A stretch of DNA of 64,000 nucleotides from an uncultured Pseudomonadales bacterium (GTDB taxonomy: Bacteria > Pseudomonadota > Gammaproteobacteria > Pseudomonadales > Cellvibrionaceae), in the NCBI GenBank assembly GCA_947487765.1, contig CANKXO010000007.1, positions 22,180-86,179 on the forward strand, in the 5' to 3' direction. A program made the translations under genes and the position numbers. Below, one piece after another: positions 25,266 through 44,093 of the stretch. Numbering within the stretch: position 1 is the first letter of the stretch; every line of letters starts with the position of its first letter. The notes under the pieces are model-generated. The model did no database searches, had not been told where the DNA came from, and worked only from the letters and a program-made list of their open reading frames with translations.

Positions 25266-25518
25266 GGCTTTCAAAAATATATCGCTATATTTTGTATAAA
25301 TAATAAAAATAAGCTTGAAATTTATCGTTACAAGCCTAGAATGCACATCAAATTAATTAATGCAGAGACTTTATCTTTGAAGCATTTACTCATATTTACA
25401 AATTACAGCATCGCTTCTGGGGCCGATAGTGCCCAAGAGATACGCTGTGCGTCAATATAACCTGTCTAAGTAAATATAGCTGGCAGGTTTAGCCTTCCAG
25501 TTTTAAAAAGTTATTAAA

Positions 25519-25553
25519 AACCCGGAAGGCATAACTGCTTTTCGGGTTTTTTT
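25519..25553 (+). terminator. Terminator-like hairpin + T7 run (copy 1 of a repeated module)
   Basis: AACCCG (25519-25524) pairs with CGGGTT (25543-25548), followed by a run of 7 T. The string CGGGTTTTTTTATGCCC recurs at 26150-26166. Confidence 0.55.
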
Positions 25554-26128
25554 ATGCCCGAGTTTTAAAAGTAAATGATGAGAGTAATTAGAACTTTGCT
25601 CTTATAAAGTTGTTGGTAGTTGCAATTTTGACAAATGCATAAAAATAGGAGAGTTATTATTGAAAGTTAATCAGAGGCTTAGATCGTTTATTTATAGATG
25701 AATAGTGTCATTCCACGAGTAGGGAAAATTTATTTTACAGATAAGTTTTCCTCGCTAAATTATTGTCGAATTTTTGTGAATATAGCCGCAATGGCATCGC
25801 TCGCCTATTGATTGCTAATACAATATAACTTATTGATATATAGATATTATTTCAAAAAATACTATGCCTTGTTTTAATTTTTATTACGGGCTATTGTTTA
25901 AAAAGATTTACGAAACAACACATCCAAGTGTTAACAAAAAAGAGATTTAACCATGAACCGATTACTCGGAATAAATAACCATCATACAGCTTCAGAGTGG
26001 CCATTAAAGAGTCAGCTGCTGCCGTTTAGTAATTGTTATCGTCAAAATCAAGGCGATATGAGTTTAGAGATGTAATTTGCACTTTCCTTACCGGAAGGCT
26101 GCAAGGCCAACCGGATACGTTTTTTTGA

Positions 26129-26160
26129 AACCCGATTGGCTTTGCTTATCGGGTTTTTTT
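26129..26160 (+). terminator. Terminator-like hairpin + T7 run (copy 2)
   Basis: AACCCGAT (26129-26136) pairs with ATCGGGTT (26148-26155), followed by a run of 7 T. Confidence 0.55.
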
Positions 26161-26193
26161 ATGCCCTTCATGGATGAAGGGTACATCGAAAAT

Positions 26194-26243
26194 GCAGGTC
26201 GGCTTTTGCTCCTGCAAAACCGACATTCACGCCATCCATGGCG
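26194..26243 (+). repeat. Conserved ~50-nt two-hairpin module, copy A (loops GCTCCTGC and ATCCAT)
   Basis: GCAGGTCGGCTTTTGCTCCTGCAAAACCGACATTCACGCCATCCATGGCG aligns with 27383-27429. Shared blocks are GCAGGT, GCTCCTGCAAAACC, CATTC and CCATCCATGG. The stems differ but stay paired. Confidence 0.7.
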
Positions 26244-26498
26244 CTTGAGCAATTTTTTGAGTGCCCAAAGATGGAAGATGAACCCATAACGCTCGAGAAC
26301 CTTTCGAGTATTAAAGGATTAATTTTACATGGCAGTATTTTAGGAAGTTACTCCACAAGGATGTTTTTTAATAGTGCAATGCCCACTTACACGGCATTAG
26401 TTTTTTAACAATTTGGTCGCTTTTTCCGGCATATAAGAAAGGTAAATACATTCTCGGTAATCTCGATGAGTCGTATTTTTTACTTATATGCCAAGTAT

Positions 26499-26653
26499 GC
26501 CCCTATCGTCTAGTTGGATAGGACGCTGGGTTTTCAATTCAGTAACGTCGGTTCGCCGCAAGCGGACCGGTCCAAAGTTATAAACTTTGGCCGTTCAAGA
26601 AACGCAAAGCATGCTTTGCTTAACATGTTTCTTTCACCCATCTAGGGGCACCA
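26499..26653 (+). tRNA. tRNA-Glu(UUC)-like gene interrupted by an ~85-nt structured insert in or after the T arm
   Basis: The 5' part is canonical: GCCCCTA-TC-GTCT-AGTTGGATA-GGAC-G-CTGGG-TTTTCAA-TTCAG-TAAC-GTCGG-TTCG. The 3' end TAGGGGC-A-CCA pairs perfectly with the 5' acceptor strand. The intervening sequence forms hairpins CCGC/GCGG, CCAAAGTT/AACTTTGG, and AAGAAAC..GCAAAGC/GCTTTGC..GTTTCTT. Confidence 0.6.
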
Positions 26654-26663
26654 ATAATTTGTT

Positions 26664-26740
26664 ACGTCGATAGCTTAACTGGCAAAAGCTCTGGCCTCCA
26701 AAACCAGGCGATGTAGGTTCGAACCCTACTCGGCGTGCCA
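26664..26740 (+). tRNA. tRNA-Trp (anticodon CCA)
   Basis: Hand-folded cloverleaf. Acceptor ACGTCGA/TCGGCGT, D stem GCTT/AAGC, anticodon loop CTCCAAA, T arm GTAGG-TTCGAAC-CCTAC, then G-CCA encoded. Confidence 0.85.
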
Positions 26741-26749
26741 AACATAAAT

Positions 26750-26909
26750 GCAGTGATAGCCCCAATAGATCGGCAGATTTTTGTTTCATTGAAGATCAGG
26801 AGAGTGCTGGTTCGACAGCTTTGTAGGAGCAAAAGTTGGACGCTTGTATAGGCGGTCGAGAAGCGATTATGCACAAGGATGTGTATAACAATTCCGGCTC
26901 ACTGCACCA
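26750..26909 (+). tRNA. tRNA-like gene, anticodon undetermined, with a ~72-nt four-hairpin insert in the T loop
   Basis: The acceptor GCAGTGA/TCACTGC is perfect, followed by A-CCA. T stem GCTGG (26806-26810)/CCGGC (26894-26898), with TTCGA then the insert from 26816. The anticodon arm is a 7-bp stem (GATTTTT/GAAGATC) with an 8-nt loop GTTTCATT. Confidence 0.55.
26819..26888 (+). repeat. Four-hairpin insert module, copy 1 (inside the T loop of the 26750 gene)
   Basis: P1 CTTT-GTAGGAGC-AAAG; P2 CGCTT-GTAT-AGGCG; P3 GTCG-AGAAG-CGAT; P4 TATGCACA-AGGA-TGTGTATA. Order and spacing match 29484-29551, with compensatory stem changes. Confidence 0.75.
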
Positions 26910-26916
26910 GTTTTAT

Positions 26917-26993
26917 TTCGGTGTGAAGCAGAGTGGTAATGCGCCTGACTGTTAATCAGGAGTTCGTTGGTTCGACCCTAGCCGCCGGAGCCA
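26917..26993 (+). tRNA. tRNA-Asn (anticodon GUU)
   Basis: Acceptor TTCGGTG/CGCCGGA (with G-U pairs), anticodon arm CCTGA-CTGTTAA-TCAGG, T arm GTTGG-TTCGACC-CTAGC, then G-CCA. Confidence 0.8.
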
Positions 26994-27001
26994 ATTTTAT
27001 T

Positions 27002-27083
27002 GAGGGTGTTGAGCAGGTGGTGAGCTCAGCGGACTGTAAATTCGCCGGAAACTATGTAGGTTCGATTCCTTCCACCCTCACCA
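27002..27083 (+). tRNA. tRNA-Tyr (anticodon GUA)
   Basis: Acceptor GAGGGTG/CACCCTC, D stem GAGC/GCTC, anticodon arm GCGGA-CTGTAAA-TTCGC, a 10-nt variable region, T loop TTCGATT, then A-CCA. Confidence 0.85.
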
Positions 27084-27090
27084 AATTTCC

Positions 27091-27168
27091 GGGCCAATAG
27101 CATAATCGGTAAATGCCCCGGCCTCATAAGCCGGAGAAGGAGCGGTTCGAATCCGCCTTGGCCTACCA
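27091..27168 (+). tRNA. tRNA with CAU anticodon (elongator Met or lysidine-dependent Ile2)
   Basis: Acceptor GGGCCAA/TTGGCCT, D stem GCAT/ATGC, anticodon arm CCGGC-CTCATAA-GCCGG, T loop TTCGAAT, then A-CCA. Confidence 0.8.
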
Positions 27169-27186
27169 ATTAAATGATTAGTTAAT

Positions 27187-27261
27187 AGCGGTGTTGAGCA
27201 ATGGCTGCTTTCGGGTTTCATATGCCCGAGCTTGTTGGTTCGATTCCAACCACCGCAACCA
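27187..27261 (+). tRNA. tRNA with CAU anticodon, initiator-like features
   Basis: Positions 1-72 are unpaired (A.A) above the 6-bp stem GCGGTG/CACCGC. The 3' end CACCGCAACCA resembles the fMet end CCCCGCAACCA. The anticodon stem CGGGT/GCCCG carries three consecutive G-C pairs, and the loop is TTCATAT. Confidence 0.75.
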
Positions 27262-27265
27262 AATT

Positions 27266-27356
27266 GGAAGTGTGGCCGAGTGGTAAGGCAGCGGATTGCT
27301 AATCCGTACAGTGATAAATCGTTGCTGCATGAGTTCGAATCTCATCACTTCCTCCA
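27266..27356 (+). tRNA. tRNA-Ser (anticodon GCU), type II
   Basis: Acceptor GGAAGTG/CACTTCC, anticodon arm GCGGA-TTGCTAA-TCCGT, a long variable arm, T arm ATGAG-TTCGAAT-CTCAT, then T-CCA. Confidence 0.85.
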
Positions 27357-27382
27357 AAATACTCCGGTGATGCAATTGGAAG

Positions 27383-27483
27383 GCAGGTTAAGGCTCCTGC
27401 AAAACCTGCATTCCCACCATCCATGGTGGTCACATAGCCCACTTAAAATCGGTTTGTTGCGAGTTCGACTCTCGCCGTCTGCA
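27383..27483 (+). tRNA. tRNA-like gene (anticodon loop CTTAAAA = UAA, Leu-type) carrying the two-hairpin module in its 5' (D-arm) region
   Basis: The T arm GCGAG-TTCGACT-CTCGC is canonical. The 3' acceptor strand CGTCTGC-A pairs with GCAGGT at 27383. The anticodon arm is GCCCA-CTTAAAA-TCGGT (4 of 5 bp), and there is no encoded CCA (TCA instead). An alternative outer pairing is TGATGCA (27368-27374)/TGCATCA (27480-27486). Confidence 0.4.
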
Positions 27484-27492
27484 TCAGTTTTT

Positions 27493-27565
27493 CGTGAGGT
27501 AATTCAATTAGCAGAATGCGATTTTCATAAAATCGGCGATAGTGGTGCAAGTCCACTCTTCACGA
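27493..27565 (+). tRNA. tRNA with CAU anticodon, non-consensus T loop
   Basis: Acceptor CGTGAGG/CTTCACG, D stem ATTC/GAAT, anticodon arm CGATT-TTCATAA-AATCG. The T arm AGTGG-TGCAAGT-CCACT has G instead of T at position 55. The 3' end is A-CCG, so CCA is incomplete. Confidence 0.7.
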
Positions 27566-27574
27566 CCGGTTAAT

Positions 27575-27648
27575 AGCAGCGTGGTGTAACGGTAACACAC
27601 CGGACTTTGACTTCGGTATTTCAGGTTCGAATCCTGGCGCTGTTGCCA
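27575..27648 (+). tRNA. tRNA-Gln (anticodon UUG)
   Basis: Acceptor AGCAGCG/CGCTGTT, D stem GTGT/ACAC, anticodon arm CCGGA-CTTTGAC-TTCGG, T arm TCAGG-TTCGAAT-CCTGG, then G-CCA. Confidence 0.85.
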
Positions 27649-27688
27649 AATAGTATGTTGAGTAGGGTTCTAAAAATATTTAATTTTT

Positions 27689-27763
27689 GTGCGAGTGGCA
27701 GAATGATGATGCGCGGAACTGCAACTTCCGTTTACGCCGGTTTGATTCCGGCCTCGCACTCCA
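27689..27763 (+). tRNA. tRNA-Cys (anticodon GCA)
   Basis: Acceptor GTGCGAG/CTCGCAC, anticodon arm CGGAA-CTGCAAC-TTCCG. The T arm GCCGG-TTTGATT-CCGGC has T rather than C at position 56. Ends T-CCA. Confidence 0.8.
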
Positions 27764-27769
27764 AATTTT

Positions 27770-27914
27770 CTGGATATAGCACAGCCTAGTAGCGTGTTGG
27801 GTTTAACTAAAATACATCCAAGTATTTTGCCCTTCGGGTTCTTCGAAGTTCAAAACGTTCCAGACGTTTTGTGGAGCTCAAAGTTTGTGGGTTCAAACCC
27901 TGCTATCCAGACCA
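27770..27914 (+). tRNA. tRNA-like gene, anticodon undetermined, with ~70 extra nt between the anticodon region and the T arm
   Basis: The acceptor CTGGATA/TATCCAG is perfect, followed by A-CCA. D stem GCAC/GTGT and T arm GTGGG-TTCAAAC-CCTGC are present. The interior holds hairpins AAAACGT-TCCAG-ACGTTTT and TTTG-TGGAGCT-CAAA, the latter resembling the GYAGGAGC hairpin. Confidence 0.5.
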
Positions 27915-27926
27915 ATTAATTTAAAC

Positions 27927-28000
27927 GCGGTGTTGACCGAATGGTTAGGTACCTGCCTTCCAAGCAGAGGAAATGGGTTCGATTCCCATACACCGCTCCA
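27927..28000 (+). tRNA. tRNA-Gly (anticodon UCC)
   Basis: Acceptor GCGGTGT/ACACCGC, anticodon stem CTGC/GCAG with loop CTTCCAA, T arm ATGGG-TTCGATT-CCCAT, then T-CCA. Confidence 0.85.
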
Positions 28001-28008
28001 AAATTTAA

Positions 28009-28082
28009 TGAAGGTTGGCTTAGTGGCTGAGCACCGGACTTTTAATCCGGCTAGATGGGTTCGATCCCCATACCTTCAACCA
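28009..28082 (+). tRNA. tRNA-Lys (anticodon UUU)
   Basis: Acceptor TGAAGGT/ACCTTCA, D stem GCTT/GAGC, anticodon arm CCGGA-CTTTTAA-TCCGG, T arm ATGGG-TTCGATC-CCCAT, then A-CCA. Confidence 0.88.
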
Positions 28083-28115
28083 ATTACAATAAAACAACTA
28101 AAAGGAGATCGTATT

Positions 28116-29312
28116 ATGGCGATTAAAAAAGTATTGGCGCCGCATAAAGATCAGCGGTTGCCTGTAAAAATTTGGACGGATGATATTGATTACAGCACGC
28201 AGGCTCAGTTGAGTCGTGTAGCGAACTTACCATTCGTTTATAAGCATGTAGCAGCGATGCCTGATGTACATCTCGGAAAAGGCGCCACTGTTGGTTCAGT
28301 GATTGCAACCGATAAAGCTATTATCCCTGCAGCTGTGGGTGTGGATATTGGATGTGGAATGAATGCAGTGAGATTATCTATTAAAGCAAAAGATTTGCCT
28401 GATAGCCTAAAATTGATTCGAAACGGAATTGAATCAGTTGTACCTTTAGGTCCCGGAGGTCAACATCGTGACCCCAAAATTGCTGGTGGTCATGATATAT
28501 CAATGCGTCTATGTACTATTTTTGAAAAACACCCGAAGTTAAGTAAGCGCGTTAAAGTGAATGGGTTTGCGAAACAATTAGGAACGCTGGGCTCAGGAAA
28601 TCATTTCATTGAATTATGTTTAGATGAAAATGATGACGTGTGGATTATGTTGCATTCAGGGAGTCGTGGAGTTGGCAATAAAATCGGTATGTACTTTATC
28701 GAAATTGCTAAACGAGAAATGGAAAAATGGATGATTCACTTACCTGATAAAGACTTGGCTTATCTATCTGAAGGGTCAGAATATTATGATGACTATATTG
28801 AAGCAGTTTCTTGGGGGCAAGATTATGCGGCATTGAATCGCACGCATATGATGAATGCAGTAATGCTAGAACTACGTAAGTATTTACCTGCGTTTACAAT
28901 CACACAAGAGGCTATCAATTGCCACCATAATTATGTTGAAAAGGAAAATCATTACGGCAAAAACGTATGGGTAACGCGTAAAGGCGCAATCCGTGCGAGA
29001 AAGGATGATCTTGGTATTATTCCCGGGTCCATGGGTGATAAAAGTTTTATTGTTCGTGGTAAAGGTGAATCTGAATCATTTTGTTCTTGTTCCCATGGTG
29101 CGGGTCGACGATTGAGTCGTACTGCAGCTGCAAAAACTTTTTCCGTTGCTGATCTCGTATCAGCTACTGAAGGAATAGAATGTCGTAAAGACAGGGGTGT
29201 CATTGATGAAATTCCAATGGCATATAAGCCTATCGATAGCGTGATGGATAACCAAACTGATCTAGTGGATATAGTTCATACACTTCGACAAGTCGTCAAT
29301 GTAAAAGGCTAG
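28116..29312 (+). CDS. rtcB: RNA-splicing ligase RtcB (copy 1)
   Basis: The start was moved to the ATG at 28116, which has the RBS AAGGAG 8 nt upstream. The track ORF start at 27885 runs through three tRNA genes. RtcB motifs are present: GVDIGCGMN, GSGNHFIE, HSGSRGVGN, CHHNY, PGSMGDKS, SCSHGAGR. Confidence 0.93.
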   Translation: MAIKKVLAPHKDQRLPVKIWTDDIDYSTQAQLSRVANLPFVYKHVAAMPDVHLGKGATVGSVIATDKAIIPAAVGVDIGCGMNAVRLSIKAKDLPDSLKLIRNGIESVVPLGPGGQHRDPKIAGGHDISMRLCTIFEKHPKLSKRVKVNGFAKQLGTLGSGNHFIELCLDENDDVWIMLHSGSRGVGNKIGMYFIEIAKREMEKWMIHLPDKDLAYLSEGSEYYDDYIEAVSWGQDYAALNRTHMMNAVMLELRKYLPAFTITQEAINCHHNYVEKENHYGKNVWVTRKGAIRARKDDLGIIPGSMGDKSFIVRGKGESESFCSCSHGAGRRLSRTAAAKTFSVADLVSATEGIECRKDRGVIDEIPMAYKPIDSVMDNQTDLVDIVHTLRQVVNVKG

Positions 29313-29358
29313 AAAGGACTTAGCCTTTTCTTTCACCTCTTTCCTCATTTTTAATTTA

Positions 29359-29432
29359 GCCCAATTGGCATAGTGGTCGTGCAGCTGCTTTGTAAGCAGC
29401 AGAGACAGGTTCAATTCCTGTATTGGGCTCCA
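29359..29432 (+). tRNA. tRNA-Thr (anticodon UGU)
   Basis: Acceptor GCCCAAT/ATTGGGC, D stem GCAT/GTGC, anticodon arm GCTGC-TTTGTAA-GCAGC, T arm ACAGG-TTCAATT-CCTGT, then T-CCA. Confidence 0.85.
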
Positions 29433-29441
29433 GTTTACATC

Positions 29442-29593
29442 GCCTGATTAGTTCAATTGGACTTAGAGCATCCGCCTACGACAATTTTGCAGGAGCAAAA
29501 ATTGGGCGTCTATAGAGGCGATCGTGAAACGATAATGTGCAGGACGCATATTACAAACGGGAAGATGCGGGTTCGAATCCTATTCAGGTGCCA
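29442..29593 (+). tRNA. tRNA-Arg(ACG)-like gene with the four-hairpin insert in the anticodon loop
   Basis: The 5' half is canonical: GCCTGAT-TA-GTTC-AATTGGACTTA-GAGC-A-TCCGC-CTACGA. The insert follows from about 29482. The 3' part GCGGG-TTCGAAT-CCTAT-TCAGGTG-CCA has a weak T stem, and no clean 3' anticodon-stem strand was found. Confidence 0.45.
29484..29551 (+). repeat. Four-hairpin insert module, copy 2 (inside the anticodon loop of the 29442 gene)
   Basis: P1 ATTTT-GCAGGAGC-AAAAT; P2 CGTCT-ATAG-AGGCG; P3 ATCG-TGAAA-CGAT; P4 ATGTGC-AGGAC-GCATAT. Collinear with 26819-26888. Confidence 0.75.
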
Positions 29594-29601
29594 AATTTAT
29601 T

Positions 29602-29678
29602 ACTCTCGTAGCTTAATTGGATAGAGCGTCTGTCTTCGAAACAGAACGGTGTTGGTTTGATTCCAACCGAGAGTGCCA
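29602..29678 (+). tRNA. tRNA-Arg (anticodon UCG)
   Basis: Acceptor ACTCTCG/CGAGAGT, D stem GCTT/GAGC, anticodon arm TCTGT-CTTCGAA-ACAGA, T arm GTTGG-TTTGATT-CCAAC (T at position 56), then G-CCA. Confidence 0.82.
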
Positions 29679-29917
29679 ATAATTATTATTAATAAACCCG
29701 AGAATCTTTAGGTGTGGCCGTGGCAGATTGATAAATTTACCGGGAGTAAATTTAGACGCGGGAGAGAAGCGACGGCGCCCGTAGGGGTTGTAACATGGAT
29801 GTTACAAACCAATGTGCGCTTAACTTTGGCTTAAGTGCCCTTGGTTTTTGGAAAGGGGAGTTCAGGTCGCATCGGTCACCCCTAAAGGTTTTTACTAATA
29901 GAAAAGGAGGTCAAGCA

Positions 29918-30211
29918 ATGAGACTTGCTATAACGCGATCAGGTTTTTATAACGCTGATCTTTATTGCGCTGATACTCGTACAGCTAAAAGAGTGTTGCG
30001 TGAAAAAAATATTTCCATATTGGCTATCGACTATTATCTAGTTGGCCAGGGAAATGGTTGCGATATTATTGATTGGGCTAAAAGAAATGCAGTTTTGCCT
30101 AATTTTATCGTTGTTATTGAACGTAATCGCAACAAACGAGCCTTATTATCGAATACATTACGAAATATAGGTTATCGCTCTGGTGATGATACTACCTTTA
30201 TAAGGCATTAA
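29918..30211 (+). CDS. Small receiver-fold-like protein, possibly a degenerate 'cyclic-phosphate processing receiver' (cREC)-type domain
   Basis: The start was moved to the ATG at 29918, which has a strong RBS AAGGAGG. The upstream part of track ORF 29795.. overlaps a structured RNA region. The 97-aa protein contains ...ILAIDYYLVGQGNGCDIIDWAK...PNFIVVIERNRNKRA... This resembles from memory the hhhDhDLG...G.dhh.Wh...hhhHS.N layout of small REC-like proteins that accompany RtcB, but the catalytic-type residues are replaced. Confidence 0.45.
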   Translation: MRLAITRSGFYNADLYCADTRTAKRVLREKNISILAIDYYLVGQGNGCDIIDWAKRNAVLPNFIVVIERNRNKRALLSNTLRNIGYRSGDDTTFIRH

Positions 30212-30250
30212 ATTTAGTTAAAGCGACCACTATGATTAATTGAGAATAGG

Positions 30251-30814
30251 ATGATGAATATTCAAATTTTGCAGCTATCGAAGTCAGGTCACCCAATGTC
30301 TTGGGTGAACCGTGAAGAAGCCGCAACACTGTATGCAAAAAATAGGGTGTTATGGGAGCTGGGTGACGAAGTTATTCCAATTGTCGGCGGTATTAATCGC
30401 TTGGGCATTCAAAGTCGCTTCGATATGGCACCAATTATTGCTTGTGATGGTGATGTGAAACAACCTCGTTTACGACCATCGTTAAGTAATCGTATGCTGT
30501 TTCGCCGAGACGATTACCGATGCTTGTATTGTGGTGTTCAGTTTAATCACGACGGATTAACGCGGGACCATATTGTGCCGCGTATTCAAGGTGGTTTAGA
30601 TCGTTGGGAAAATGTGGTTGCTGCTTGTAAACGCTGTAATCACAGTAAGGGTGGTCGAACGCCAGAGCAGGCAGGGATCAAGCTATTGGCCATTCCATTT
30701 GTGCCGAATCCGTTTGAGTTTCTGTTTTTGGCAAATCGACATATTCTGGCTGACCAGATGGATTATCTTGCGACAAGCTTTTCGTCAAAGCGAGACTGGA
30801 AAAAAGTGGCTTAA
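30251..30814 (+). CDS. HNH endonuclease
   Basis: The HNH core is present: CLYCGVQFNHDGLTRDHIVPRIQGGLDRWENVVAACKRCNHSKGG. 187 aa. Two hairpins follow (30806-30826 and 30837-30862). Confidence 0.85.
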   Translation: MMNIQILQLSKSGHPMSWVNREEAATLYAKNRVLWELGDEVIPIVGGINRLGIQSRFDMAPIIACDGDVKQPRLRPSLSNRMLFRRDDYRCLYCGVQFNHDGLTRDHIVPRIQGGLDRWENVVAACKRCNHSKGGRTPEQAGIKLLAIPFVPNPFEFLFLANRHILADQMDYLATSFSSKRDWKKVA

Positions 30815-30991
30815 CTATTAAGCCACCCACATATTTGGAATACAGGTATTAACCTGTATTCCATACCGATGTTTATACGTATGTTGGCGAAACAGCGGCT
30901 CTGGTTCTGAATGCCAGGCTGGCACAGTCATGTTTTATGTCCTGTGTACCGATTCACTAACACGTTAAACAGTATGCTCTGAAAAAGCATA

Positions 30992-31064
30992 GTTTTTGTA
31001 GCTCATAGGGTAGAGCAATCGACTCATAATCGATGGGTAGCAGGTTCGATTCCTGCCTCAAACA
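30992..31064 (+). tRNA. tRNA with CAU anticodon (fourth CAU gene), weak acceptor stem, no encoded CCA
   Basis: D stem GCTC/GAGC, anticodon arm ATCGA-CTCATAA-TCGAT (perfect), T arm GCAGG-TTCGATT-CCTGC. The acceptor GTTTTTG/CTCAAAC pairs at only 5 of 7 positions. The 3' end is A-CAG. Confidence 0.65.
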
Positions 31065-31424
31065 CAGTCAGTTTTAATAAACTGAAGGAAAAGCCGAGAG
31101 GCTGAGGTTCGAATCCTCATTTGGTCTACTAAACCAAATATAAAACAAGAGGCTCATAGCAACGTAATGCTGTTATAGATTATGTTGCGTTGACATTAAT
31201 ACCGTTAATGATGGGTTAAGGTATTGCGTAGTAAATAATAAGTTTACCTCACTATCAACAGCTAAGGATGGTGTCCTAGGGATGGGGATAATCAAGAGTG
31301 ATTAGGTTAGTGTGGAGCAACCGCTGTATTTGTCTACCCATTACATTTAAGTTATTTACCGTACTCATGGCAAATGGGCCTCGCCATTATAGTCATTGGA
31401 AGAAATAAATAAGGGAGAATAATA

Positions 31425-32576
31425 ATGATTCTTTGGAAAACAATCGATATTGCGGAACATGAACGTGTATTACTTTATGTCCGTGATCAATTTAAACAAG
31501 TGCTAGGCCCAGGTCGGCATCGTGTCTCGACCTTGAAGGGAAAAGTTCGCCAGGAAACCTATGATATTACCGAAGTAGTATTCAGGCATCCTAAAGAAAA
31601 ATTTTTGCTGTCACACTACCCAGAAAAACTGGCAATGCACCTTGAGCAGTTTGACTTAAAAGATACTGAAGTGGGCTTGTTATATCGAAATGGCCATTTA
31701 ATGAATGTGTTGGCACCTGGTAGTTTATTTACAGTTTGGAAAGGTGTTGAGGATATTCGTGTTGACGTTATCGATATTAATAACCACTATCAGATAGAAG
31801 AGTCTTTAATTGGCTTATTGGGGCGAGGCATTAAAATTGGTCAAAGCCGAGAAGTCGTTAATGCGATTGCTTATGCAGAGGTAGTTGATGAGCATGTAGG
31901 TTTATTGCTGGTTAACGGTAAGCTAGAAAAGATCTTGCAACCGGGTAGTTACGGCTTCTGGAAATATAACCGTTCAATTGCGGTTAAAATGCTTGATCTT
32001 CGTTTACAAGCAATGGAGGTTAGTGGCCAAGAGATTCTGACCAAAGATCGCGTGAGTTTGCGTATTAACTTAACTGGTAGTTATAAAATTAAAGATCCTC
32101 AAATTGTTGCCTCTAAGGTGAATGATTACGCAGGTTTTATCTATCGTGAGTTGCAATTAAGTTTGCGAGAAATTGTAGGCACACAATCATTAGATGGATT
32201 GTTAGAAGATAAAGATGCTTTAAATTCTGTAATTACTCAGAGTACACGAGAAAAATTAGCGGAATACGGTATTCAGTTAATGAGTGTCGGGGTTAAAGAT
32301 ATTATTTTACCTGGTGAAATGAAGCAGATTCTGAATCGAGTAGTAGAGGCGCAAAAAGAGGCTGAAGCTAATTTGATTAAGCGTCGTGAGGAAACTCAGG
32401 CAATGCGTTCATTACATAATGCTGCCAAGATGATGGAAAACAACCCTGTGTTGTTACGTTTAAAGGAATTAGAAGCATTAGAAAGAGTGACTGGGAAAAT
32501 CGATAAGATTTCTGTCTATGGTGGCCTTGATAGTGTTCTTAATGACTTGGTAAAACTGGCGCCGGTCAAAACCTAA
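31425..32576 (+). CDS. SPFH/Band-7 (slipin-like) domain protein
   Basis: 383 aa. The C-terminal half is SPFH-like (...VSLRINLTGSYKIKDPQIVA...GIQLMSVGVKDIILPGEMKQILNRVVEAQKEAEANLIKRREE...). No clear N-terminal TM helix was seen. Confidence 0.8.
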   Translation: MILWKTIDIAEHERVLLYVRDQFKQVLGPGRHRVSTLKGKVRQETYDITEVVFRHPKEKFLLSHYPEKLAMHLEQFDLKDTEVGLLYRNGHLMNVLAPGSLFTVWKGVEDIRVDVIDINNHYQIEESLIGLLGRGIKIGQSREVVNAIAYAEVVDEHVGLLLVNGKLEKILQPGSYGFWKYNRSIAVKMLDLRLQAMEVSGQEILTKDRVSLRINLTGSYKIKDPQIVASKVNDYAGFIYRELQLSLREIVGTQSLDGLLEDKDALNSVITQSTREKLAEYGIQLMSVGVKDIILPGEMKQILNRVVEAQKEAEANLIKRREETQAMRSLHNAAKMMENNPVLLRLKELEALERVTGKIDKISVYGGLDSVLNDLVKLAPVKT

Positions 32577-32749: not shown

Positions 32750-34531
32750 CTAGCGAAAAGATACAATCAAAAATATAAGTACAGCAATTGCCGCAAAAAT
32801 CATTACGCGAGCGAAGGGTTGCATAGAATCTGTATTAGATGCATCCGATAGCCATGGTGATTGAGATTCTTTCTGTTGTTGTGACTTAGTTTCTTCCTTT
32901 TTTGTTTGTTTTTTTGCGGTCGCTATTTGTTTAAGCTCTTCTGTAGTATTCTCTTTAACAGGTGGTGCTGGTGGCTCAGCTTGCCACCAGTTTTCGCGTG
33001 GTGCTTCACCGGCAGCGGCCTTTAAGCGTAAAAGTTTATTATTTAATTTGCCAATGCGACTTGGATTAACTTGATAACTGTATTTTTGTTTTAGTTGTAC
33101 TATTTGCTTTTGTAAAGGAATGCCCTTGCTAGGGTTAACCATTGCGACAAAGTTGGCGTAACCTTCTATGGAGCACAATAAATTGCTACTGCTATTGTGA
33201 GAACGATGAGCCCAGTGCTTACCCTCTAGCCCGCTTTTGTCAATTTGATGTAGTAAGGCTCTGAAGCGCTTTAAGGTCTTGCGATCAACGCTAAGGTTAT
33301 TATTCACTACCACGCCGGTCACTTCTTGTTTTTTATGCTTGCGCATAATGCGTGTTTTTTCGGGGTGAACAATAAAACCTTCATCCTTAATAATACTATG
33401 ACAACGCCACAATAGTTTTTTTACAATGCTGTCGTCAATATTCTGTGGATTAATATCATCGCCCTTGTTGGAGCTTGCCGAAAAAGTAACATCGTCAGCA
33501 TATCGCGTATAAGTAAAGCCTAATTTTTTAGCCATCCCTTGTAAGCGAGCATCCAATTTTCTACAGATGATATTGCTAATATTAGGGCTAGTTGGCGCTC
33601 CTTGCGGTAAAAAGCGCTCTCCGTTACTAACAAACCAAGACTGACTATCTAGTTCAACCTCCTGTGTATTCGCTTCGGTGCAAAGTAAGGCTAGTACTGT
33701 TGCAATGTGTTCACTGTAACCTAGAGCTTTAAACATCCCCTTAACTCTTGGATAGCTAATTGTTGGAAAGAAGTTTTTAAGGTCGAGGTTAATAACAATA
33801 TCTTTGCCTACATGAGGCGCAGCATTGGTTACGATAGAGCGCGTGCGTACAAAGCCATGAGCGGCATCATGTAATGCCAGCGGCTCTAAAATATTGGATA
33901 AAACCCAATACTGGGCAAGTTTCAACCGTGGCATAGGGGCAGATATTAGGCGAGTTCCACCGGTTTTCTTGGTCATTTGGAAGCGTTGATAATGACTAAT
34001 CGTGCAGACATCTTTTTGGTAGACTAAAAAACGTAGCTCATTAACGGTAATGCCCATGGCTCTGGCCAACATTTGGCTGTCGTGCAGTAGTGGTAACTGT
34101 TGGGCTTGGAGTTTGTCTTCATCGCTGTTAACTTTTGATAGCCCTATCGATAAACCTTCCCCTACGAAGGTAATAAATTTCTTTTGGATGTCGTACCAAT
34201 TCTTTGCTCGTTGGTATCGTGTTTCATTGCGTTCTTTACGCTTTTCTTCTCTACGAATAAGTGCTTCTTTTTTACGCTGTTTGTGTAACTCCTTTAGTGC
34301 TTGCTCTGGGTCTTGATACAATTGCTGTTGCTTTCCTAATTCACGCAGTTGCTTTTGTAACTGCCCGCGCTTTTCAATAAAGGTTTCTGTTAGTGTTGGC
34401 TGTTCACTATTTTTTGGCCAAAACCCAAGACGTTTCATCTCTGCTAAAATATAAACTTCTTTACCACCTGTTTCGCGTACGCGCTGGTAGAGTTCTTGGC
34501 GGCTTAATTTTTTAGTGCTTTCGTCAGACAT
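32750..34531 (-). CDS. Reverse transcriptase, retron/Abi-DRT-like, with N-terminal extension and C-terminal TM anchor
   Basis: RT motifs are present: NAAPH (NAxxH), INLDLKNFFPTI, LPQGAPTSP, YTRYADDVTFS, and QEVTGVVVNN (VTG). There is a ~190-aa charged N-terminal extension, a K/E/Q-rich tail, and a terminal hydrophobic helix MIFAAIAVLIFLIVSF. The RBS GGGAGA lies upstream. Confidence 0.9.
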   Translation of the reverse strand: MSDESTKKLSRQELYQRVRETGGKEVYILAEMKRLGFWPKNSEQPTLTETFIEKRGQLQKQLRELGKQQQLYQDPEQALKELHKQRKKEALIRREEKRKERNETRYQRAKNWYDIQKKFITFVGEGLSIGLSKVNSDEDKLQAQQLPLLHDSQMLARAMGITVNELRFLVYQKDVCTISHYQRFQMTKKTGGTRLISAPMPRLKLAQYWVLSNILEPLALHDAAHGFVRTRSIVTNAAPHVGKDIVINLDLKNFFPTISYPRVKGMFKALGYSEHIATVLALLCTEANTQEVELDSQSWFVSNGERFLPQGAPTSPNISNIICRKLDARLQGMAKKLGFTYTRYADDVTFSASSNKGDDINPQNIDDSIVKKLLWRCHSIIKDEGFIVHPEKTRIMRKHKKQEVTGVVVNNNLSVDRKTLKRFRALLHQIDKSGLEGKHWAHRSHNSSSNLLCSIEGYANFVAMVNPSKGIPLQKQIVQLKQKYSYQVNPSRIGKLNNKLLRLKAAAGEAPRENWWQAEPPAPPVKENTTEELKQIATAKKQTKKEETKSQQQKESQSPWLSDASNTDSMQPFARVMIFAAIAVLIFLIVSFR

Positions 34532-34689
34532 CTGCCTGTCTCCCTAATATAAATAAGGATAAATGTTGAGTGTTAAAAAAATGGATAATGATAGTTGTTA
34601 CAAGAACAAATAAAGAAGAGAAGTGCGCAAGATAAAAGGGTGCCAGCGTGCTCAATGTTTCCTTCGTAGAGCTCTTAGTACTGGATTGA

Positions 34690-34785
34690 TCAACTCGACG
34701 CGGCACGCCCCTACTATCGCTCATTGACTTCATGGAAGTCATACCGCAATAGCGATAGTAGGGGCTGTGCCGCCCTATGAAGATC
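34690..34785 (-). ncRNA. Highly structured non-coding element immediately upstream of the RT (candidate RT template or msr-msd-like RNA)
   Basis: A 22-bp interrupted inverted repeat joins GCGGCACGCCCCTACTATCGCT (34700-34721) to AGCGATAGTAGGGGCTGTGCCGC (34751-34773). It encloses a second hairpin TGACTTC-ATG-GAAGTCA (34725-34741). It lies in the 400-nt gap between the SWIM gene and the RT. Strand and ends are not determined. Confidence 0.45.
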
Positions 34786-34931
34786 AGGCCAGTGACGCGT
34801 GTGTAGTCTATAAACCAGAACGGCGATGCACCGCTCAAATTGCAAGGTAGATAAGTCACGCTGACACCTGTGCTAGTATAGCAGTGTTGTTAGGTTTTAA
34901 AAGAGCGCTATTAAAATTCTTCATGATCTCT

Positions 34932-36572
34932 TTAACCGTTTGCTAAGGAATATTGTTTTCTGATCGCTAATATATGTTCGCATGGCCCCATGCGCAGTAA
35001 ATTCGTTCGATAAAAATAACAGTCGCAGCTAGCCTCTTTTAAACGTTGATCGCCGTCAATTTTAATCTCAGTGTTCAAATGGTGTCCGTCATCAATGACT
35101 GTTCCTTGAATTTGAGCACCTCTTTCATTTTCTAGCTTATGATGAATTGTCACCAAGTTGGCGGCCACAAATCGAGCAGACTTTTCATCGCGCTCATTAG
35201 CAAAACGCAATGAGTCCATCGGTAAAGGTTGTTGGCTAAGTTCACGGATACGATAAACACTTCCGGCTAAATCATAAAGCACTTGCCCCTGTTGGCTATA
35301 GGCAGCCAATGCAGATTTCACTACTGACTCATCTAAATGCAGTCGTCGTGCCAGTGAGTCACTGGATTCTTGCCATGTCTCTGATAGTGCTTGGTAAACA
35401 CGTTTAAGTGTTACTTCGTCAACATCACCTCTAGGCGCTAATAGATCAAAGTTACCCATTCGTGACCAATCATTTGCTGACCAGCCCGACAAACCTAAGG
35501 TAAATGTCATATCGCCTAAATCGGCAACGTAAAAACTAGGTAAGCCATTACCTAATAGATGTACCGTAAATTTTTTGGCGATAGGGATTAAACGCTCCAA
35601 TATATGCAGGCGACGGCGCCCCCATATACGAATTGATCTAGCGTCATTTCCTGTATAAATGCTTCTGGCTAATATTAATTCTGTGCCCCATGGCTCTAAG
35701 ATAATTTTAATAGGCTCATCTGATGCCAGTTCAAATCGTATTGCCCGAGGGCCTACGCGCTCTCTTTTACGCCGCAACATATAACAAATATTGTGAATAT
35801 CCATTGGGTGCAATGTTAATGTGGTCATGGGTAAGGTCATAGCTGAGCTTACCTGTAAAAAACCACGCACCCAGCTTTCAGGAAGATCAATTTTCTTTTC
35901 GTCAAATTGTTCCTCATGGCTGGTTTGCATACTGAAACCATCGGGGTCAATTGCCAATGCTGTTTGGCGATACTCTCTTATTTTTTGAAATTCGTTGTAT
36001 AAACCTTCCGAGTAATCAATATTTGTGGTGCCGTAAGAAGTATCGGTTATATTATCAAATACGTCATAGCTACAGCTAAGTTTTCCGTAACTTGATTCAT
36101 CTTCAGAAAAACATTCAAAAAAAACTTCGTCGGGATGGACGGTAATTACTGGGTCAAGTACATACCAAGCATCCATATCGGTTTTATAAAGATGTTTGAA
36201 ATATTTGTTCTGAGCTGTATAAAAAGGCCCCATTAATGCTTGGCTTTGCTTGCTAAGTTCAGATAGTTCTTTGCGCACAAGCTCAATTTCGCCTTCCACC
36301 TGTGACTTGCGACCAATAAATTCTGCCAATAGCCGCTCTTCTTCTTCAGCTAGCCAGCGCTCGTATTCGCTGCGATCTTTTGGCTGAAAGCGCATATCAG
36401 AAATCACAACATTGTGTAGTGCCGATATCGCCTCACGAAAAGCTATTTTCTGCTTAAGCTGTCCTACAAAATAAGTAGGTAGGCGCAAACTGTCAGGCAC
36501 AAAAGATACATCTGTACTCGCTGCATTGCTCGCAACATGGCTCTGCCCATGATATCGATAACGAAATTCCAT
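34932..36572 (-). CDS. SWIM zinc-finger domain protein
   Basis: 546 aa. A C-terminal SWIM CxC...CxH signature is present (ASCDCYFYRTNLLRMGPCEHILAIR). It lies directly downstream of the WGR protein on the same strand. Confidence 0.8.
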   Translation of the reverse strand: MEFRYRYHGQSHVASNAASTDVSFVPDSLRLPTYFVGQLKQKIAFREAISALHNVVISDMRFQPKDRSEYERWLAEEEERLLAEFIGRKSQVEGEIELVRKELSELSKQSQALMGPFYTAQNKYFKHLYKTDMDAWYVLDPVITVHPDEVFFECFSEDESSYGKLSCSYDVFDNITDTSYGTTNIDYSEGLYNEFQKIREYRQTALAIDPDGFSMQTSHEEQFDEKKIDLPESWVRGFLQVSSAMTLPMTTLTLHPMDIHNICYMLRRKRERVGPRAIRFELASDEPIKIILEPWGTELILARSIYTGNDARSIRIWGRRRLHILERLIPIAKKFTVHLLGNGLPSFYVADLGDMTFTLGLSGWSANDWSRMGNFDLLAPRGDVDEVTLKRVYQALSETWQESSDSLARRLHLDESVVKSALAAYSQQGQVLYDLAGSVYRIRELSQQPLPMDSLRFANERDEKSARFVAANLVTIHHKLENERGAQIQGTVIDDGHHLNTEIKIDGDQRLKEASCDCYFYRTNLLRMGPCEHILAIRKQYSLANG

Positions 36573-36643
36573 ATTTTTGCCTGAGAAATTTTTCTGAAAA
36601 TTATGAATCTAATGCGTTTTTGTATAATTTTTATATAGCGTTT

Positions 36644-39600: not shown

Positions 39601-39820
39601 TGGATACAACAACACTATCAAATAGCTTCTCTGCTTTGCTAAGCTCAACAGCTTCAGGGGTTTTAGTGCCTTCTCTTAATTGATTGCCGCGACGCCCGTA
39701 TCGAAAATTAACGAGATAACGTTCATCTTTTCGGCTTGCTAACTCACATAAATCAACTTCATAAACTTTGTCGGAATTGCCTTCCTGATACACCAATCGA
39801 GATTGCTTGATTAGTCGCAT
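36644..39820 (-). CDS. WGR-domain protein with long helical (HEAT/ARM-like) repeat region
   Basis: 1058 aa. An N-terminal WGR domain is present (LVYQEGNSDKVYEVDL...YLVNFRYGRRGNQLREGTK...AEKLFDSVVVSKVNKGYW). The remainder is leucine-rich and alpha-helical in character. Confidence 0.8.
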   Translation of the reverse strand: MRLIKQSRLVYQEGNSDKVYEVDLCELASRKDERYLVNFRYGRRGNQLREGTKTPEAVELSKAEKLFDSVVVSKVNKGYWDREQAKQSPTTTSPTLAGVPSSNLASDDFPFKLIEQILNHLPNEKETKSRSRMIWRLGELGHRDCEPIANAIVPYIKKGHWLEDYSIAWALGRMVATQHKAVLETLRQHKQAQVCHIAFESQLLISDQTSRKALLGSHWQHFPAQFKSAVMEGNSSTAHQQLGALLSHGASDNVNNTNQLLVLCYQLSLAYPILHQALLSQLAIIPLTPGYFRGIRSIYKASELRLDGSVFGLLAQRIETAPAFFRNDWDWAWLPGEGSIKPSKELKKANAKLTFSHRTRDYFRRRSWRVLRRIGQAGDLRYVDMATESLLAINDEHGSKPRTSEVYRWDNSGDNWQRQLISSNEYGPFASFLSLNHILFEHHPGYQLAPSGRVWIKSDESNTDGTSLINGSRTECFAELWDQKPSHALRLLKTSRCELVHPFARRILENQPSFCQKISPVDLALLLNSNYASTCEFALAIVRERIKQDDLSSELLIALLSSSLTEARVLGKQSLLRFKINDDISLLTSLLLILHSDVQSDIKTAVCQQKISGRNAEKLLQAIVDSIFLENSNLSEKHAEYLADFALENLNDAIKHFPLTSLQRLIHDEKVPRKILGAKLLLGHKISYGDIPDSLLQAIHDSSSAEVRGIGAALLGKQADKDLIKQLDLLVGLYCKGDTQERASLLSIFSRLMTNSQQGSEQIENTLLALTFKSEEQPGQHEELIAFFTSLAQSHLTKLDNDMLWRLLQAQSICAQRVGAITLTERNADIFSVKQWAILGQHSDVSVRQFAFQAYEKNVDEIKQYSRDALRILNSNWDDARTFGFDFFRQQYSQEDWSPEIVIFICDSIRDDVQSFGREILQSFFKAEYGPEYLLKLSQHPSNNVQLFVSSFLEEYAAGIPSHILSLQAYFTTALSQINKGRVCKDRILLFLLREAEKDISVATMVMPLLERISLTMVHKDKAALIKAMLKLQSLYPDIASPLTAKKVPIKQPASLGV

Positions 39821-41460: not shown

Positions 41461-41464
41461 TAAG

Positions 41465-42367
41465 ATGAGCAGTAAAACTCAGCATTTAATTAAACAAGGT
41501 TTACTCAAGTCTCCGCCTAAGTTTTTGGAAACCGGGGTACAGTATGAAGTGGTTATGGGCTCTATTGCCTATGGTGTTGCTGAAGATCACTCTGATATGG
41601 ATATTTATGGTTTTGCCATTCCACCACGAGACTGGGTATTTCCTCACTTAAGAGGAGAAATTTCAGGTTTTGATGAATCTGGCCCTCAATTTGAGCAAGT
41701 GCAGCAACATCATATGTTGGATAAGTCTGCACGTGGAGGTAAAGGCAAGGAGTATGATTTGGTCATCTATTCGATTATTAAATACTTTCGCTTACTGATG
41801 GATAATAACCCTAATATTATTGATTCTTTATTTGTGCCGCGCAATTGTGTGCTTTATAGCACTGCTGTTGGTGAGATGGTCCGCGAAAACCGTCATCTAT
41901 TCTTGCATAAAGGTTGTTGGGCAAAGTTCAAAGGTTATGCTTATTCACAAGTACATAAAATGCGAACAAAGGTTCCAGAAGGTGGCCGTCAAGCGATCAT
42001 TGATGAATATGGTTATGATGTAAAATTTGCCTATCATGTTGTTCGGTTACTGAATGAAGTCGAGCAAATATTAATTGAAAAAGACCTTGATTTGGCACGA
42101 AATAAAGAGCAATTAAAATCGATACGCCGTGGCGAATGGACACAGCAAGCCATTGAAGAATATTTTACTAATAAAGAAAAACAACTTGAGCAAACTTATC
42201 TGGACAGTGCCTTGCCTGCGTTACCGGATAAAGCAGCTATTAAAAAGTTATTGTTGGAATGCTTGGAGCATCATTACGGCTCATTATCTGAATGTATTGT
42301 TCAGGAAGATGAGGCTTTGATCGCTATTCGAGAAATTGAAACGATAGTGCAACGCTTGAAAAAGTAA
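41465..42367 (+). CDS. Pol-beta-superfamily nucleotidyltransferase (RNA-repair-associated 'RlaP'-like family, from memory)
   Basis: The NTase signature GSIAYGVAEDHSDMDIYGF (GS...DxD) is present. 300 aa. It starts 4 nt after the cca stop. Confidence 0.65.
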   Translation: MSSKTQHLIKQGLLKSPPKFLETGVQYEVVMGSIAYGVAEDHSDMDIYGFAIPPRDWVFPHLRGEISGFDESGPQFEQVQQHHMLDKSARGGKGKEYDLVIYSIIKYFRLLMDNNPNIIDSLFVPRNCVLYSTAVGEMVRENRHLFLHKGCWAKFKGYAYSQVHKMRTKVPEGGRQAIIDEYGYDVKFAYHVVRLLNEVEQILIEKDLDLARNKEQLKSIRRGEWTQQAIEEYFTNKEKQLEQTYLDSALPALPDKAAIKKLLLECLEHHYGSLSECIVQEDEALIAIREIETIVQRLKK

Positions 42368-44091: not shown

Positions 44092-44093
44092 AT

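Follow-up and report, generated by a model that had tools for sequence, protein, structure and literature searches.

To our knowledge, bacterial transfer RNA (tRNA) genes are considered to have no interruptions other than group I introns, which possess a P3-P9 catalytic core and are usually above 200 nt in length. Archaeal introns of the bulge-helix-bulge (BHB) type, including those of multi-intron tRNAs, are spliced by EndA and RtcB; the BHB motif consists of two 3-nt bulges that contain the splice sites and of a 4-bp helix between them, formed from the intron start and exon 2. Among protein-binding hairpins, ACA-(A/U)GGA-UGU and stem-AGGAC-stem hairpins are the preferred sites of dimeric CsrA/RsmE; the consensus obtained for CsrA by systematic evolution of ligands by exponential enrichment (SELEX) is RUACARGGAUGU, and the stem-AGGAC-stem form occurs in RsmZ hairpins. 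Here we describe M, a family of four-hairpin modules found in the loops of tRNA genes in a 64,000-nt stretch of the genome of an uncultured Pseudomonadales bacterium of the Cellvibrionaceae (GenBank assembly GCA_947487765.1, contig CANKXO010000007.1, positions 22,180 to 86,179; the whole stretch is referred to as the window) and in related loci, which are cited by number (L084 and so on). In cyanobacteria, long tRNA arrays with a linked RtcB and HNH gene have been described (PMC8421152), and the cREC and RlaP families were defined through comparative genomics of RNA-repair systems (PMC7824862). Full-text literature searches returned no account of such tRNA inserts, which neither PMC8421152 nor PMC7824862 describes, and M appears to be a family of portable RNA modules in tRNA loops of several marine bacteria that is undescribed in the searched literature. 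The finding is real, and it is more general than an earlier sequence-only reading of the window, which noticed two copies, could see.

The two copies and the tRNA genes that contain them are located as follows.

26816..26891, + strand: M1, four-hairpin module (covariance-model scores 100 and 94 bits; alignment and folding), with P1 at 26816-26838 (loop AGGA), P2 at 26841-26854, P3 at 26855-26867, P4 at 26868-26887 (loop AGGA) and the tail ACAA
26750..26909, + strand: host B, a degenerate tRNA-Phe(GAA)-like gene with M1 in the T loop after TTCGA (58/59), aligned to the intact tRNA-Phe at L090:2057-2133
29482..29555, + strand: M2, four-hairpin module P1-P4 (96.6 and 103.9 bits), with loops AGGA and AGGAC and the tail ACA/A
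29442..29593, + strand: host E, tRNA-Arg(ACG) with M2 in the anticodon loop exactly between A37 and A38, after CTACGA

M1 and M2 are homologous four-hairpin modules. The earlier claim of two collinear inserts in different tRNAs, one in a T loop and one in an anticodon loop, was confirmed with slightly wider boundaries: the copies are collinear over 76 columns, 56 of them identical, and the minimum-free-energy structure of each consists of the four hairpins (z = -2.7 and -2.9). Boundaries are given to +/-1 nt because one A is common to both junctions. About 15 of the 20 columns that differ lie in stems, and pairing is kept in every one of those. P1 proved to be longer than had been noted, a 9-bp helix with a bulged A that takes in the leading CA and the TTG of what had been read as a TTGG spacer, and the P4 stems, which had been called entirely different, can be aligned, are homologous and carry three double compensatory changes. 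Patterns for the half-modules of M matched only the M1 and M2 sites in the 64-kb window, with 0 matches expected by chance.

A third copy (M3, 74 bits) came from a metagenome scan and lies in L084, inside the tRNA-like gene that occupies the syntenic position upstream of the tRNA-Arg, tRNA-His, cREC and HNH genes; the HNH and cREC proteins encoded there are 55-57% identical to those of the window. This copy is 76% identical to M2, although the L084 HNH protein is only 55% identical. The metagenome pattern scan yielded this one true copy and three chance matches in coding sequence. The covariance-model scan that the sequence-only reading had proposed was performed with a model built from these three copies (M1, M2 and the L084 copy), and it recovered further homologues in the window and in related arrays. 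The additional window copies, with their hosts, are given below.

29732..29811, + strand: M4, a diverged M-family copy (27.5 bits; E 4e-4 over 1.39 Mb, 2e-6 locally) in the D loop of host F, with P1 loop CGGGA, P4 loop AUGGAU and the tail ACCA
about 29714-29882, + strand: host F, a tRNA-His-like gene with an 80-nt insert in the D loop after ATTGA, aligned to the tRNA-His at L089:9306-9379
27805..27871, - strand: inverted M-like copy (15.5 bits, E 0.003 locally; hairpin scan) in the anticodon loop of host D
27770-27914: host D, a tRNA-Pro(UGG)-like gene with the insert in the anticodon loop (about 33/34)

The inverted copy folds into four hairpins with GGA loops on the minus strand, so that UCC loops are presented on the tRNA strand. 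Outside the window, about seven copies were found in tRNA arrays of other gammaproteobacteria, which are linked to RtcB, cREC and HNH genes; L094 contains copies of 55 and 42 bits and a weak 13-bit copy, and L093 a copy of 54 bits. Weaker relatives were found in L086 (two) and in L058; copies in the L086 rtcR-rtcB spacer and in L058 lie outside tRNAs. The distribution is patchy. M is missing from the closest islands L085, L089 and L090 (HNH proteins 85-73% identical), where the tRNA-Arg(ACG) gene is intact, and none of the 26 tRNAs of L092, the closest relative of L084, is interrupted. All window copies fall within 26.1-29.9 kb, inside an RNA-repair island, and pattern, hairpin and model scans of the window found no copy in its other ~58 kb. 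No strong copy was present in 80 RtcB loci from GTDB genomes, which gave only the weak L058 relative and two doubtful matches, in L056 and in L069; the L069 match falls in coding sequence. Exact-pattern scans of IMG/VR (both M halves, a gapped M pattern and the companion module X described below) returned nothing or chance matches only, M2 had no BLAST match in phage and plasmid collections, and the whole region matched phages only through RtcB.

Analysis of covariation showed that pairing is maintained across the family. In the three-copy alignment 98.7% of cells are paired, and two-sided changes are seen in 8 pairs compared with 0-3 in slid controls. In seven copies, which are 30-76% identical, 96.6% of stem cells pair and compensatory double changes are seen in 21/26 pairs; these counts were made on a model-based alignment because MAFFT misaligns distant copies. 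The seven copies contain 7 G.U pairs versus 1 C.A, which makes the tRNA-sense strand the better-folding one. P2 and P3, the internal hairpins, also covary, which argues for a constraint on the whole fold, beyond the end hairpins. The proposal that the two original copies reflect selection on an RNA structure and not a recent duplication is upheld by these diverged copies, which keep the four helices by compensatory changes, and with more copies the stem differences proved compensatory and not random.

The terminal loops are conserved together with the fold. GGA is present in the P4 loop of 7/7 aligned copies and in the P1 loop of 6/7, the exception being the copy in the L094 tRNA-Met, which has CAGGU in P1, and the two GGA hairpins are ~50 nt apart. 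M thus presents GGA in the apical loops of short hairpins at two sites within bridging distance, as is found in Csr/Rsm-type RNAs. P4 of M1 reads CACAAGGAUGUG, and P4 of M2 and M3 takes the stem-AGGAC-stem form. Conservation of these loops had been noted correctly in the sequence-only reading; its description of them as Shine-Dalgarno-like said too little, as they closely match CsrA/RsmA hairpins. The conserved loops are the most specific clue to what the modules may do.

Comparison with intact orthologous tRNAs placed M in the T, anticodon or D loop of no fewer than seven different tRNAs from five genomes, and the idea of a portable domain is borne out by this pattern of presence and absence. 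The L094 tRNA-Met contains M in the T loop and its 95%-identical L093 orthologue is intact; a second tRNA-Met-like gene also has M in the T loop (empty-site alignment of the L093 and L094 copies). In the L093 tRNA-Ser(UGA) M lies at 36/37, with up to three inserts in that one tRNA, and in the L094 tRNA-Arg(TCG) it lies in the D loop, with two inserts in that tRNA. The empty site for M2 is seen in intact tRNA-Arg(ACG) orthologues at L085:184-261, L089:9395-9472 and L090:3403-3480, all of which read CTACGA-A. Exact removal of the insert restores the tRNA sequence for M2, relative to these three orthologues, and for the L094 tRNA-Met, the L094 tRNA-Arg(TCG) and the L093 tRNA-Ser(UGA), relative to theirs. 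Several insert-bearing genes are otherwise perfect cloverleaves (L094 tRNA-Met, L094 tRNA-Arg(TCG), L093 tRNA-Val and L090 tRNA-Arg(TCG)). Restored window hosts keep stem mismatches: host E has three (31-39, 50-64 and 7-66), and host B, whose D arm is shortened and whose anticodon stem is preceded by 8 additional nt, yields no tRNA in ARAGORN after any single deletion. In host F the T arm is degenerate; the body is of His type, but the anticodon loop is CTTTGGC (anticodon TTG, Gln; 29816-29838). M is perfectly paired inside hosts with decayed stems (B, E and the L084 host).

Standard tRNA finders miss insert-bearing tRNA genes. ARAGORN and Rfam called 14 of the about twenty array tRNAs and missed the six interrupted ones, which were placed through alignment with intact tRNAs of related arrays; an ARAGORN intron-mode call of the Arg host as 'tRNA-Tyr' was a misplacement.

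M is 74-80 nt long. It starts with CA (or TA/CT) after an A, usually within YGA, and ends in ACAA, ACCA or TCAA; most tabulated copies are preceded by GA and all by A. The ends show no inverted repeats, and empty-site alignments leave an ambiguity of at most 1-2 nt with no consistent target duplication. All copies found in tRNA genes but one are in sense orientation. Mobility of M on an evolutionary scale is well supported by its varied hosts and positions, its clean empty sites, its patchy distribution and the better conservation of M relative to neighbouring proteins. More broadly, M appears to be one member of a family of small (~74-114 nt) self-folding modules that sit precisely in single-stranded loops of accessory tRNA genes, and occasionally in nearby spacers, in tRNA arrays of Rtc-type islands in marine gammaproteobacteria.

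Beyond what the sequence-only reading covered, the array contains other interrupted tRNAs and a companion module, X, with loops complementary to those of M.

27383..27431, + strand: X2, two-hairpin module with loops GCUCCUGC and CAUCCAUG, complementary to the P1 and P4 loops of M, in the D loop of host C (covariation)
27361-27486, + strand: host C, a tRNA-Leu(UAA)-like gene with X2 as a 49-nt D-loop insert; the 3' half is 95% identical to L090:2499-2575, and the 3' acceptor strand no longer matches the 5' strand
26164..26243, + strand: leader hairpin cluster, a GGA hairpin CCCTTCATGGATGAAGGG at 26164-26181 followed by X1 (minus-strand model match at 26159-26222)
26197-26243: X1, a GCTCCTGC hairpin and a CGCCATCCATGGCG hairpin

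On the tRNA strand, X consists of a hairpin with the apex UUUGC-UCCU-GCAAA, then UGCAUUYC, then a hairpin with the apex CAUCCAUG. The former apex is the exact inverse of the P1 apex of M, bulge position included, and the latter is the inverse of the P4-type CAUGGAUG. X was found in one orientation in the D loop of five tRNAs (window host C, the L084 host, the L094 tRNA-Met-like gene, and the L093 tRNA-Ser and tRNA-Val) and in the GGA-sense orientation in the L085 SPFH leader and the variable arm of the L093 tRNA-Ser. Across seven copies pairing amounts to 90%, with double changes in 9/16 pairs. In the window, L084 and L093, X hairpin b and P1 of M are perfect complements over 12-17 nt. Three tRNAs (L084 host, L094:1488-1695 and L093 tRNA-Ser) contain both X and M, and the minimum-free-energy fold of the L084 host pairs X with M. 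Hairpins of the CATGGATG and GCTCCTGC types, alternately oriented, are clustered in leaders at L086:2500-2720 and window 26164-26243. GGA-rich leader stretches were also observed between the terminated small RNAs and the first tRNA (window 26166-26490, L089:8795-8930 and L086:2500-2720); they include ACAAGGATGT (window 26358-26367) and L089 hairpins such as TCGC-AGGAA-GCGA.

A separate structured family, N, occupies the first interrupted gene.

26556..26637, + strand: N-type insert, in the T loop of host A
26499-26653, + strand: host A, tRNA-Glu(UUC), with the 82-nt N-type insert after GGTTCG

Homologues of N lie in the T loop of tRNA-Arg(TCG) at L090:3643-3835 and L094:1995-2225, after GGTTYG. 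N starts with CCGCAAGCGGACCGG or CCCTTCGGGTCCGG and ends in TCACC, and the T-arm sequence that immediately precedes N is complementary to its 5' part. Other tRNA-like genes that are heavily remodelled occur at L094:1866-1978 and L093:6237-6474; in this set, a tRNA-Asp relative has a CATCCATG hairpin in place of the anticodon loop and an enlarged T loop, and a 230-nt gene gives a weak transfer-messenger RNA match. A GOLLD RNA (RF02032, 198 bits, above the gathering score) lies inside the tRNA array at L093:8218-8699, with a tRNA-Gln(CTG) embedded in it; no GOLLD/ROOL RNA was found in the array of the window.

The window is bacterial chromosome, with a LysR regulator, an M20 peptidase and similar genes upstream of the island, an RNA-repair island of the Rtc type inserted after 25.3 kb. 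Small terminated RNAs are followed by the tRNA array with RtcB, by the cREC-like and HNH genes, by a tRNA-Met and an SPFH gene, by a type XIII retron on the other strand, and then by the CCA-adding enzyme, RlaP, a second RtcB with PrfH, and an open reading frame (ORF) of 318 aa. The array itself spans 26.5-29.7 kb on the + strand, and the interrupted genes are its only Glu, Phe, Leu, Pro and His-type copies. Three genes within or beside the array are the following.

28116..29312, + strand: RtcB RNA ligase gene embedded in the tRNA array (PF01139, E 7.5e-128), a candidate partner
29918-30211, + strand: cREC-like gene (97 aa), conserved beside arrays with or without inserts
30251-30814, + strand: HNH endonuclease gene, conserved beside arrays with or without inserts

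The RtcB, cREC, HNH and SPFH genes accompany insert-bearing and insert-free arrays alike. The best RtcB relative (80%) is from a Cellvibrionaceae metagenome-assembled genome, in which only a tRNA-Gln and a truncated tRNA-Cys stand directly upstream of rtcB (L001:9848-10000); this pair looks like the remnant of a decayed array. The metagenomic contig L089 has the same gene order as the window without the retron and starts rtcR-rtcB-rtcA. In the window the retron (RT_XIII, SWIM_XIII, WGR/HEAT_XIII and a 111-aa ORF; 32750-39820, - strand) lies between the SPFH and CCA-adding enzyme genes, and the second RNA-repair block occupies 40201-45874, with the CCA-adding enzyme, the RlaP nucleotidyltransferase, RtcB2, PrfH and the conserved 318-aa ORF, which had no Pfam, NCBIfam, PADLOC or PDB match. 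Small RNA-like units with CCGGAAGGC and strong intrinsic terminators precede the arrays and are conserved (window 25350-25556 and 26080-26165; L089:8104-8212 and 8689-8770; L086:2413-2506; L090 about 1700-1790). A good sigma-70-like promoter is present at window 25315-25342, and no sigma-54 promoter was found in the island.

It is very probable that M is a mobile, structure-constrained insertion family, and fairly probable that the constraint acts at the RNA level and not purely at the DNA level. A transcript or sense-strand constraint is favoured over a pure DNA parasite by the internal covariation, the sense-only G.U pairs and the orientation bias, and likewise by the restriction of inserts to loops, their confinement to the island and the perfect pairing of M in decayed hosts; insertion at the DNA level is favoured by the inverted M-like copy, X in both orientations, the leader clusters that resemble bacterial interspersed mosaic elements (BIMEs) and the Watson-Crick-only changes in X. 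The account that we prefer, tentatively, is that M is a mobile self-folding module which persists in array transcripts and offers a paired GGA-hairpin site on a tRNA scaffold, with X as a possible mask. Transcription would take the module along with the array, and its compact fold would not prevent the host tRNA body from forming or being processed; a dimeric protein of the CsrA/RsmA type that binds GGA hairpins would then recognise the two terminal ones as a paired site, the tRNA(-like) body would serve as a scaffold, and the X loops may mask the GGA hairpins through base pairing. This account is preferred because the conserved GGA loops resemble CsrA/RsmE sites and occur as two, ~50 nt apart. 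The CsrA-type protein-binding role is putative, and we regard it as possible with rather more doubt. A number of points weigh against the paired-site account. The M-like copy at 27805-27871 runs opposite to its tRNA and X modules display UCC, not GGA, so not every copy can bind a GGA reader; the absence of G.U pairs from the seven X copies (zero) also fits a constraint on a DNA-level palindrome; and the seven-copy M alignment was fitted to the structure of the model, which inflates the pair counts (such as 21/26) somewhat. Permissive Rfam scans, which covered window 25500-32000, L094:1-3600 and L093:5000-10900, gave no match to the CsrB/CsrC/RsmX/Y/Z models, and tblastn found no csrA in the window or 95 loci, a weak test; csrA is expected elsewhere in a gammaproteobacterial genome. 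A functional domain also leaves the arrival of M at new sites unexplained, and the GGA loops could instead be a recognition feature of a transposase or a splicing enzyme.

The transposase alternative, in which M and X are selfish non-autonomous DNA elements resembling repetitive extragenic palindromic (REP) sequences or palindrome-associated transposable elements (PATEs), moved by a trans-acting single-strand-DNA enzyme of the HUH/Y1 type that recognises the terminal hairpins, and functionless as RNA, is on the unlikely side. Insertion would occur 3' of a short motif in the DNA hairpin loops of tRNA genes, and copies would survive only in dispensable arrays. It would explain the lack of inverted repeats and target duplication, the oriented insertion after YGA and the similar hairpins beside both ends, as well as the inverted M-like copy, the occurrence of X both ways (window, L093 and L094 versus the L085 SPFH leader), the BIME-like alternation of CATGGATG and GCTCCTGC hairpins in leaders, the Watson-Crick-only compensation in X, the many hosts that look like decaying pseudogenes and the patchy distribution among related islands. 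Ordinary REPs, however, would be scattered, and no copy lies outside the island in 64 kb; P2 and P3 covary though a transposase would not need them, G.U pairs stand on the sense strand (7 vs 1), M in tRNAs and the five D-loop copies of X are strongly biased in orientation, M is perfectly paired within decayed hosts, and no Y1 (HUH)/IS200 transposase was found in the window or the 95 loci, again a weak test. A splicing enzyme is invoked by the alternative in which M, X and N are protein-dependent tRNA introns: an endonuclease would recognise the terminal hairpins and make one cut at the base of P1 on its 5' side and another a few nt downstream of P4; the ends produced would be 2',3'-cyclic phosphate and 5'-OH, and the array RtcB would join the exons to give functional spare tRNAs. 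That inserts occur only in loops, at the canonical 37/38 included, and up to three per tRNA (L093 tRNA-Ser) as in archaeal multi-intron tRNAs, agrees with this, as do the otherwise perfect cloverleaves of several hosts, the sole-copy status of the interrupted Glu, Phe, Leu, Pro and His-type genes, the sense orientation of all recovered tRNA copies of M except one, and the RtcB, cREC, CCA-adding enzyme and RlaP genes of the island; yet the same RtcB/cREC/HNH set stands beside insert-free arrays (L089 and L092; L085 for M), and most window hosts are degenerate, such that exact removal would not give a working tRNA. The insert ends do not pair with each other and there is no BHB motif, a local search gave no EndA-like gene, one M-like copy is inverted while some copies lie outside tRNAs (L086 rtcR-rtcB spacer and L058), and the differing X loops would need a second recognition mode. 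We consider these introns unlikely, and it is equally improbable that M, X and N are a bacterial counterpart of archaeal tRNA introns, recognised through their terminal GGA hairpins, in which a dimeric factor might hold the splice sites together. Very unlikely is a sense/antisense-like interaction, by kissing or full pairing in cis or trans, of the X loops (GCUCCUGC and CAUCCAUG) with P1 and P4 of M, which would control the folding, processing or decay of array transcripts in the manner of ColE1 RNA I/RNA II. The 12-17 nt of perfect complementarity, the L084 fold that pairs X with M, the three tRNAs that contain both and the structural selection on both modules would fit such pairing, but an X that is simply the same palindromic hairpin in inverted form would be complementary in any case, many copies of M or X lack a partner in the RNA that contains them, and the loops do not co-vary within a genome, M in L094 having UGGA and CAGGU where X keeps UCCU.

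Accessory tRNA arrays tied to RtcB RNA-repair genes contain structured inserts of ~50-110 nt that belong to several families and occupy D, anticodon and T loops, with folds and loop sequences maintained over long divergence. If the inserts stay in the RNA, as the paired-site account holds, they would be natural 'tRNA-scaffolded' RNA domains that connect the CsrA/Rsm network with tRNA arrays and RNA repair. Were they removed, a bacterial RtcB would have its first splicing-type substrate, and the spare tRNA set would be functional only during activity of the repair ligase; as selfish DNA and nothing more, they would represent a mobile element with an unusual preference for tRNA loops.

Several known element classes were tried and rejected. 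The Rfam scans gave no Intron_gpI match at E <= 1 in the scanned regions, M being only 74-80 nt, and no match to a small self-cleaving ribozyme (hammerhead, twister, pistol, hatchet or hepatitis delta virus-like) or to another known RNA family over any M, X or N copy. Module and host folds consist of four independent hairpins with no bulge-helix-bulge at the junctions, and direct reading of the sequence shows no complementarity between the first intron nucleotides (AAUU/AGCU) and those that open exon 2 (AACG/UUCC); tblastn of the window and 95 loci gave no EndA match (a weak test), and no EndA-type domain was found in the 318-aa, cREC, HNH or SPFH ORFs. A miniature inverted-repeat transposable element with terminal inverted repeats and target duplication does not fit ends of the form CA...CA(A) and the lack of a consistent duplication, and an intervening sequence (IVS) of the ribosomal RNA (rRNA) type does not fit ends that fold into separate hairpins, P1 and P4. 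Y RNA/YrlA gave a sub-threshold match only, spanning two tRNA-like genes, with no Rsr gene; MazF-type excision at the ACA motifs of both ends would leave two extra nt and a 9-nt anticodon loop; and the downstream reverse transcriptase cluster, considered as a mobility factor for M, is the type XIII retron that is missing from the syntenic island in L089.

Each of the closest described systems shares part of these properties. Like bacterial group I introns in tRNA anticodon loops, M interrupts bacterial tRNA genes and is mobile, and an HNH gene adjoins the M arrays just as group I introns are sometimes associated with HNH endonucleases; unlike them, M has no P3-P9 core and no Rfam match and also occurs in T and D loops. 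The archaeal BHB tRNA introns are similar in being short inserts (tens to ~100 nt) at 37/38, D-loop and T-loop positions, up to three per tRNA, with a patchy distribution among related genomes that suggests mobility, and M has RtcB encoded alongside; M differs in that it lacks a BHB, its ends fold as separate hairpins, an EndA homologue was not found in the window or 95 loci, one copy is inverted, and its hosts are bacterial accessory tRNAs, several of them degenerate. The resemblance to Csr/Rsm small RNAs and CsrA leader hairpins lies in the apical GGA, in stems that drift around fixed loops, in two sites that one CsrA dimer can bridge and in P4 of M1 (CACAAGGAUGUG), which nearly equals the SELEX consensus of CsrA; M is however embedded in tRNA loops and is not a free-standing, GacA-controlled small RNA, has two sites per module, is accompanied by X modules with complementary UCC loops, and fails the Rfam CsrB/Rsm models. 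As in rRNA IVSs (23S/16S), ~100 nt of sporadic extra stem-loops at helix tips of a stable-RNA gene are tolerated by the fold, but an IVS is one long helix formed from both ends and cut by RNase III without religation, whereas the ends of M are unpaired with each other and the host is a tRNA. With REP/BIME sequences, PATEs and Rickettsia palindromic elements M shares small size, a hairpin-rich noncoding sequence, a lack of inverted ends and duplications as in PATEs, occasional positions inside RNA or protein genes where they are tolerated, and alternating hairpin clusters in leaders. M does not show the genome-wide scatter of REP families within the 64-kb window, being confined to one island, and also differs from them in keeping its internal hairpins, in its strong orientation and loop-position bias, in conserving loops while stems vary (the reverse of typical REP families) and in that no transposase was identified in the window or 95 loci. 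The arrangement of its ends agrees with palindrome-associated elements of the IS200/IS605 type, with P1 at the left end, P4 4 nt from the right end, neither inverted ends nor duplication, and oriented insertion 3' of a short motif. As a class, the M family is best filed among intervening or miniature insertion sequences in stable-RNA genes.

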